Assembly: GCF_054482525.1 (NCBI RefSeq)
Contig: NZ_CM137006.1
DNA length: 64,000 nucleotides
Reading direction: 5' to 3' (one strand)
Positions 63,200 to 64,000 of this stretch are shown here, in pieces. The translations under genes and the position numbers were made by a program. A model generated the notes under the pieces. It was not told the origin of the DNA. It did not search any database and was given only the letters and a program-made list of their open reading frames with translations. Each line of letters opens with the position of its first letter. Within the stretch, counting starts at the first letter, position 1.

Positions 63200-63626
63200 A
63201 CCGGACTCCTCCTGCGATCCCTTCTGATACTGTCATCAGCATTACGTCATCCTCCGTCATGTCCGCCACATCCGGGGAAGCGGGGATAACTTTATTCCCG
63301 TCCGGACCAAAGCGGACGCCTCCGGCAAGCCCTGCCGCTTTCTGCATCAGCACATCATCTTCAGGCTCTTCGTCAGCCTCACACCGATTCAGCAGACTGA
63401 AATCCAGCGGATGCATCTCCGGATCGCTGAAAAACAGGCTGAGCACGGTGTACGTCAGCCCGGAAAAGTGCATATCCAGCAGAACATCATGAAAATAATG
63501 GGTACTGTAAAAACGGTGCCAGTCGGCATACTCCGTGGATGACATCCCGGCAAGCATGGCGCGCCAGTCGGGTCGCCCCATCTCACGCGCCAGTTTCAGG
63601 GCAAAACTCAGCTCACCGTCGAACAC
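63192..63626 (-). CDS. T: T-frame portion of tail assembly chaperone G-T (made by -1 frameshift from G)
   Basis: ORF in -1 frame relative to G beginning at the slippery site. Confidence 0.65.
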   Translation of the reverse strand: MFDGELSFALKLAREMGRPDWRAMLAGMSSTEYADWHRFYSTHYFHDVLLDMHFSGLTYTVLSLFFSDPEMHPLDFSLLNRCEADEEPEDDVLMQKAAGLAGGVRFGPDGNKVIPASPDVADMTEDDVMLMTVSEGIAGGVRYG

Positions 63627-64000
63627 TTTCCCGCAGAAACAGGCTCTGCAGGCCCGGCGTCCTCTGCCTGTTCAGGGGCATTATTCACCACAAACTCAGA
63701 CATTCCGGACAGACGTAACACCACGTTTTCAGCCTGAGCAATTGCCTCCGTGGGCCAGGTGGTAAGCACTTCCTGCTCAATCTGCGTAATGGCTTCATTC
63801 ATGGACAGCAGCTTTGTCTTCTGCGGATGGTTATGCCACAGAGACATCGCCACCAGAAACGCCCCGCCTCTGATAAGATCCTCTACAGACACCTGCAGGT
63901 TGCCACTGGATTCAGCCTTTTTTTCCTGCTCTTTCAACCAGGCAAGATGCTCAATACGCTGCAGGGCTGACAGTTCAGAAAGCGTGACGGTCACGCCGTT
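63608..64000 (-). CDS. G: Tail assembly chaperone G (5' end probably beyond window edge)
   Basis: TVTLSELSALQRIEHLA...VVNNAPEQAEDAGPAEPVSAGKCSTVS matches lambda gpG. Confidence 0.75.
   Translation of the reverse strand, partial: NGVTVTLSELSALQRIEHLAWLKEQEKKAESSGNLQVSVEDLIRGGAFLVAMSLWHNHPQKTKLLSMNEAITQIEQEVLTTWPTEAIAQAENVVLRLSGMSEFVVNNAPEQAEDAGPAEPVSAGKCSTVS
63626..63632 (-). other. Programmed -1 ribosomal frameshift slippery heptamer GGGAAAG (G to G-T)
   Basis: Minus strand reads GCG GGA AAG in G frame, three codons before G stop. Confidence 0.8.

Follow-up and report, generated by a model that had tools for sequence, protein, structure and literature searches.

A probable orthologue of the programmed -1 ribosomal frameshift signal of lambda G-T among the tail genes of a lambdoid prophage in an Escherichia coli-type chromosome

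The stretch of DNA analysed here (64,000 nt of contig NZ_CM137006.1, in the following referred to as the window) belongs to a chromosome of the E. coli type that carries a lambdoid prophage, the right end of which abuts appY and ompT. The prophage is visible in the window from codon 11 of gene G onward; codons 1-10 of G are situated beyond position 64000, outside the window, as are its ribosome binding site, the regulatory region, and the genes V, U, and Z together with those of the head. In lambda, 434, PhiR46_1, phi80, and the homologous E. coli prophages, G is preceded by V. The visible part of G (63608..64000, minus strand), which encodes the tail assembly chaperone gpG, comprises residues 11-140 and a TGA stop codon (63610..63608). 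Over 19 nt (63608..63626, minus strand), it overlaps with the T segment, which consists of 144 codons and a TGA (63192..63626, minus strand) and is situated in the -1 frame relative to G. The overlapping pair lies directly upstream of gene H (60638..63199, minus strand; PF06791 and PF09718), which encodes a tape measure protein of 853 aa that is 97.7% identical to lambda H. The ATG of H (start at 63199) overlaps in turn with the stop codon of T (ATGGCTGA), and this overlap is the same in lambda.

Concerning the overlap of G and T, direct reading of the minus strand from 63640 to 63608 yields, preceded by CCT, the codons GTT TCT GCG GGA AAG TGT TCG ACG GTG AGC TGA. They contain the slippery heptamer GGGAAAG (63632..63626, minus strand), which is in the phase G_GGA_AAG with regard to the G frame and corresponds to Gly134-Lys135 of G; a -1 shift would change the reading of GGA AAG to GGG AAA. 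The overlap consists of the last G of the heptamer, which is the first base of the T segment, of five 0-frame sense codons (TGT TCG ACG GTG AGC), and of the TGA. The heptamer, its phase, the distance of five codons to the TGA, and the -1 extension of 144 codons are all the same in lambda G/G-T. The DNA is identical to that of lambda over the 88 nt surrounding the site, and the alignment exhibits the identical heptamer also in 434 and PhiR46_1. The original prediction had recognized GCG GGA AAG on the minus strand, a -1 ORF (63192-63626) beginning exactly there, and the lambda heptamer in the same context, and it was exact in its coordinates and right in each of these points. It had further placed these codons three codons before the G stop, which is wrong, since five sense codons separate AAG from TGA, as in lambda.

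The heptamer as such is no more frequent in the window than expected by chance (8 copies observed vs 8.04 ± 2.6 expected), such that motif enrichment was rejected as uninformative with regard to the site. It was replaced by a control of the frame geometry, in which each of the eight copies of GGGAAAG in the window was examined for three properties: a 0-frame ORF that extends far upstream, a stop in the 0 frame no more than 7 codons away, and a long open -1 frame. Only one of the eight, the copy at 63632..63626, combines all three, with an upstream 0-frame ORF that runs off the window end after at least 123 codons and a -1 frame that is open over 146 codons. It is thus the context, and not the heptamer alone, that makes the case for a frameshift site. 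No Shine-Dalgarno-like stimulator is visible upstream of the heptamer, where the sequence is unconserved in divergent clades, and a scan for promoters and terminators between 63000 and 64000 yielded nothing relevant.

Over its visible residues 11-140, G is identical to lambda gpG at 106 of 130 amino acids (81.5%), and the 24 substitutions are found mostly in residues 31-55 and 73-111. Relative to the closest phage relative, three codons of G differ non-synonymously and none synonymously, numbers that are too small to interpret. For the T segment, the alignment with lambda G-T that had been proposed as a check was carried out, and the -1 ORF indeed aligns with gpT, being identical at 141 of 144 amino acids (97.9%) and differing by D70E, R82C, and E112K. 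Residues E70 and C82 recur in other loci; K112 is private, as it is found in none of 55 other T products of 144 aa. With regard to protein families, G matches PF06894 (Phage_TAC_2, E 1e-44) and the NCBIfam equivalog TIGR01674 (phage_lambda_G; 165.9 bits, cut-off 74.45), and T matches PF06223 and the NCBIfam equivalog TIGR01715 (188.9 bits, cut-off 77.35). In PHROG 32165, a profile of 290 positions derived from proteins of fusion length, positions 12-142 are covered by G and positions 140-285 by T, such that G and T adjoin each other in the profile at the position of the slip. The predicted gpGT fusion would comprise 279 aa (135 + 144), with PVSAGK on the G side and VFDGELSF on the T side of the junction. 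A PDB sequence search with this fusion protein yielded no solved relative.

For a comparison among relatives, 80 viral contigs of IMG/VR encoding a relative of T were collected, and the 76 loci with enough flanking sequence were used (T identity 72-98%). The heptamer GGGAAAG is invariant in all 76 of these related viral loci, and so is the arrangement of five codons plus TGA following it. As the identity of the 60 nt upstream of the heptamer falls to 53-60% in divergent clades, the invariance of the heptamer does not merely reflect conserved surroundings. At the beginning of T, identity remains at 80-100% over ~120 nt even where, as in these clades, the end of G exhibits only 53-60% identity; however, this part of T also encodes the motif LARE[MF]GRPDWR, and constraint on the protein alone could explain its conservation. 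The codon annotated as the start of T is GTG in 57 of the 76 loci, GTC in 15, GCA in two, and GTA and GCG in one each. In 19 loci, the open T frame contains no ATG, GTG, or TTG at all around the junction, and the frame is still conserved, such that T can be reached there only by frameshifting from G. The T frame of phi80 is likewise devoid of a start codon.

The G-T region is 94% identical to that of lambda-type phages, 98% identical at the nucleotide level to that of the isolated phages Turner (PP925837) and PhiR46_1 (PV340565), and 100% identical to that of prophages in six other complete E. coli genomes, among them A33, CE0007a, and EC-10. The phages and prophages sharing this allele possess different backbones or insertion sites; in E. 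coli A33, the identical allele is situated near prfC, at another chromosomal site, within a complete head-tail module with a J of 1131 aa. The presence of one G-T allele in different backbones is typical lambdoid mosaicism. A homolog of G-T is found in 3691 of 5426 complete E. coli genomes (~68%), with a median of two copies. The prophage studied here differs from lambda in adjoining lom/stf/appY/ompT, in the C-terminus of J, and in its side-fibre genes.

In phi80, mEp237, and the Stx phages, a shift-prone motif is found at the homologous codon, five codons before the G stop, and a downstream hairpin is situated at the same place as in the window, whereas the heptamer differs (G_GAA_AAG in phi80 and mEp237, A_AAA_AAG in the Stx phages) and T identity amounts to 59-71%. 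In Fels-1 and mEp460, a single codon separates G_GAA_AAG from the stop; the motif of Vibrio phage HY01 is C_CCA_AAA and is situated one codon upstream of the homologous position.

Concerning the remaining tail genes, identity to lambda amounts to 100% in M and L, 99% in K, 99.6% in I, and 83% in J. The latter (54756-58235, minus strand) is of full length (1159 aa vs 1132 aa in lambda) and 98% identical to gpJ of E. coli SB0258h1, from which it follows that the receptor-binding end differs from that of lambda; lom and the side-fibre genes are also of another type than in lambda. The original prediction was right about the sizes of H (853 aa), M (109 aa), and L (232 aa), and its view that the tail module is largely intact is supported as well, since all genes from G to J are of full length and 83-100% identical to lambda. 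Judged by its sequence, this part of the tail module is intact, and nothing suggests damage to the chaperone pair, which is probably still functional. The interruption of the fibre gene, which had been predicted as well, was found in the stf homolog (51646-54030, minus strand), which carries a single in-frame TAG (52308..52306) and no insertion, and which can be aligned without a change of frame with the whole of the intact homolog in E. coli SB0258h1 (791 residues, 85.7% identity). In the lambda reference record NC_001416, the side-fibre gene is itself split into orf-401 and orf-314, such that the interruption of stf is irrelevant to tail-tube assembly. In lambda, it was a frameshift that split the gene in the laboratory strain, and this strain is viable. 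The premature stop in stf indicates nevertheless that some decay has occurred in the prophage.

The right end of the prophage is partly rearranged and contains a tfa remnant. This remnant of 36 aa (49852-49959, minus strand) is 83% identical to the C-terminus of lambda Tfa, and PGAP calls a partial tail fibre assembly pseudogene at the homologous spot of SB0258h1. Further observations concern the mRNA of the tail operon, in which two segments of 71 nt on the minus strand are exceptionally stable, namely one that starts at 63196, where the T stop and the H start meet (z -5.16), and one that starts at 59572, where L and K meet (-39.7 kcal/mol, z -5.08). Both may constitute translational-coupling or processing structures.

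Taken as a whole, the site, which belongs to the tail operon of the prophage, is with a probability of about 95% the orthologue of the programmed -1 ribosomal frameshift signal of lambda G-T. This reading is derived from the sequence signal, the geometry of the reading frames, the homology of both parts, and the evolutionary conservation of the signal. As such, it is the known textbook -1 frameshift site of lambda gpG/gpGT in a very common prophage module. The lambda G/G-T frameshift has reportedly been studied by Levin, Hendrix & Casjens in 1993 and by Xu, Hendrix & Duda in 2004, 2013, and 2014.

In lambda, for which PMC5009743 and PMC3296357 credit Levin et al. 1993 with the experimental proof of the slip site, ~96% of the ribosomes stay in the 0 frame, and the others undergo a -1 shift on GGGAAAG; both lysine codons are read by a single tRNA-Lys(mnm5s2UUU), and under-thiolation of its U34 leads to more shifting and to a lower phage yield (PMC3296357, PMC7618472). 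The gpG protein and the G part of gpGT bind to H, the tape-measure protein, and coat it; the T part of gpGT recruits the major tail protein V and starts its polymerisation. A gpG:gpGT ratio of ~30:1 is critical for tail assembly, and both proteins are absent from the virion (PMC5009743, PMC4493119). The production of gpGT at a few percent of gpG and the need for it in tail assembly have been demonstrated for lambda only (PMC5009743, PMC3296357). Upon expression of the late operon, the site would presumably work in the same way in the prophage studied here: Most ribosomes on G would read GGA AAG and five more codons and then stop, giving rise to gpG of 140 aa, and a small fraction (~4% in lambda) would slip back by one base on G_GGA_AAG, with the tRNA-Gly in the P site re-pairing from GGA to GGG and the tRNA-Lys(mnm5s2UUU) in the A site from AAG to AAA. 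The shifted ribosomes would read on through T in the -1 frame, resulting in the 279-aa gpGT, and the T product would be made solely as the C-terminal part of this fusion.

T could alternatively constitute an independent gene that is translated from its own GTG (63626..63624) without any frameshift. Such a GTG exists in the window, and NC_001416 as well as the PGAP genome records carry G and T as separate CDSs; however, no purine-rich stretch precedes this GTG other than the heptamer, and the latter directly abuts it and is therefore too close to act as a Shine-Dalgarno sequence. In 19 of the 76 relatives, moreover, this GTG is replaced by GTC, GTA, GCG, or GCA and the T frame remains open and conserved, phi80 likewise lacks a start codon, and the only products reported in the literature are gpG and gpGT (PMC5009743, PMC3296357). 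The loci without a start codon rule out independent initiation as a general route to T, and for the window itself we consider it very improbable. Even less probable is a fusion by transcriptional slippage of RNA polymerase on a run of A instead of ribosomal slippage. Nothing specific speaks for it, as the site holds only AAA, and three A are far below the homopolymer lengths known for such slippage (established knowledge; reviewed in PMC5009743). The response of the shift frequency to the thiolation of U34 in tRNA-Lys (PMC3296357) points equally to a ribosomal event.

A further alternative leaves the identity of the site uncontradicted and questions its current use alone: The prophage might be cryptic or defective elsewhere, and the signal, though intact, might be an idle and undecayed recent remnant without current selection. 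The premature TAG in the stf homolog, the tfa remnant, and the partly rearranged right end fit such a view, as do the private substitution K112 of T and the fact that the window ends at codon 11 of G and displays nothing upstream of it. On the other hand, all tail genes from G to J are of full length and 83-100% identical to lambda, the exact G-T allele recurs in six other complete genomes, and side fibres are dispensable, the gene being split in the lambda reference record. We regard an idle signal as rather unlikely.

Downstream of the heptamer, a spacer of 7 nt (63625..63619, minus strand) is followed by a candidate stimulatory RNA structure of 71 nt (63548..63618, minus strand), within which the G stop codon is situated. 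It consists of an outer helix of 8 bp, in which 63618-63611 pairs with 63555-63548, and of an inner GC-rich hairpin of 13 bp (63591-63558), which is enclosed by the outer helix. The structure has a folding energy of -36.7 kcal/mol (z -5.05), and none of 500 dinucleotide shuffles was as stable; for the 106 nt after the heptamer, the folding z-score amounts to -2.3. When 9.3 kb of the tail operon was folded in 770 segments of 71 nt spaced 12 nt apart, only one of them was as stable; this comparison is somewhat biased towards the target, the limits of which had been set according to the structure. When 24 distinct close relatives were folded separately, the outer helix (at least 7 of 8 pairs) was found in 20 and the hairpin (at least 9 of 13 pairs) in 23 of them.

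Concerning covariation, the close IMG/VR relatives exhibit no signal, with one-sided wobble changes only and with 131 of 500 shuffles reaching the observed score. With eight distant phages added, seven pairs are changed on both sides, vs 1.5 ± 1.0 in shuffles (0 of 500) and between 1 and 5 in slid-partner controls; the covariation score of this set including the eight distant phages is 0.130 vs at most 0.059, for a region that also codes for a conserved T motif. As the structure region encodes the motif LARE[MF]GRPDWR of T, coding constraint is a confounder for the conservation of the structure. Fels-1, mEp460, and Vibrio phage HY01 possess different hairpins at roughly the same place and in another register. 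In Rfam, no family was found at the site or the structure at the gathering threshold.

Bacterial -1 frameshift signals of the IS911/dnaX type consist of a heptamer and a downstream stem-loop, and some of them also possess an upstream Shine-Dalgarno sequence. With these, the window shares a heptamer ending in A_AAG and a stable stem-loop after a spacer of 7 nt. The site in the window lacks an upstream Shine-Dalgarno-like element (score 'N' of Sharma et al.), and the structure is a putative stimulator. In the experiments of Sharma et al. in E. coli, GGGAAAG alone, without a stimulator, led to 0.277% shifting, whereas the IS911 stimulators, which are moderate, raised it to 3.80% and the pseudoknot of IS3 to 43% (supplement of PMC4066793). 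The ~4% described for lambda equals the 3.8% of G_GGA_AAG with moderate IS911 stimulators and is far above the 0.277% of the bare motif (PMC3296357, PMC4066793), which suggests that the context helps shifting. The entry G_GGA_AAG_4 (gpG) of Sharma et al. 2014 reads "SD no / structure yes" (PMC4066793). In their gpG cluster, a computed hairpin is present in 51% of the genes, with a spacer of 7 nt and a stability gain indistinguishable from background (PMC4066793).

We tentatively propose, at somewhat less than even odds, that the 71-nt structure with its two helices is a genuine moderate stimulator, which would raise slippage from ~0.3% to the ~4% needed for the 30:1 ratio. As part of this proposal, relatives with weaker or stronger heptamers (G_GAA_AAG, A_AAA_AAG) would keep the structure and tune the same ratio. 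If confirmed, such a stimulator would explain the ~14-fold gap between the efficiency of the bare heptamer and that in the phage, as well as the same chaperone ratio in phages with different heptamers. The wider interest of the site is accordingly a mechanistic one, in that the lambda site, a textbook case, may rely on an RNA structure that is conserved downstream of the heptamer.

For annotation, G and T should be treated as one CDS with ribosomal slippage (gpGT, 279 aa) and not as two genes. The lambda RefSeq record NC_001416 and the PGAP-annotated E. coli genomes contain G and T as separate CDSs without a ribosomal-slippage join; the record of 434 (OL657226) has the joined G-T product annotated, and that of phi80 (FN582354) both the slippery sequence and the joined G-T CDS. 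For the prophage studied here, the site indicates an undecayed tail-tube assembly module, and it has little import beyond annotation. Concerning published records, the main text of PMC3296357 prints the lambda slippery sequence as GGGTTTG (GGT-TTG / GGG-TTT), whereas Table 1 of the same paper contains GGGAAAG; the former is a typographical error and could mislead. The phage record MW057783.1 ('Campylobacter phage CJLB-4') contains a lambda-type G/T/H block at lambda-like coordinates, with a T that is 97.2% identical to that of the window, which suggests a lambda-like sequence under a Campylobacter label.

Some further features were observed in the window. An ORF for an IS200-like Y1 transposase is situated at 43652-44243 (minus strand; PF01797, E 5e-38), and the Rfam sRNA STnc490 (44120-44243, 146 bits) extends over its 5' end. 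A second sRNA family of Rfam, C0299, is found at 25329-25407 (minus strand; 107.7 bits). Beyond ompT, the region 45687-46871 contains a GNAT acetyltransferase ORF and a divergent ORF for an HTH/cupin regulator; in the best-matching E. coli genomes, the alignment ends at ~47238, and envY-ybcH-nfrA is situated in place of these two ORFs.
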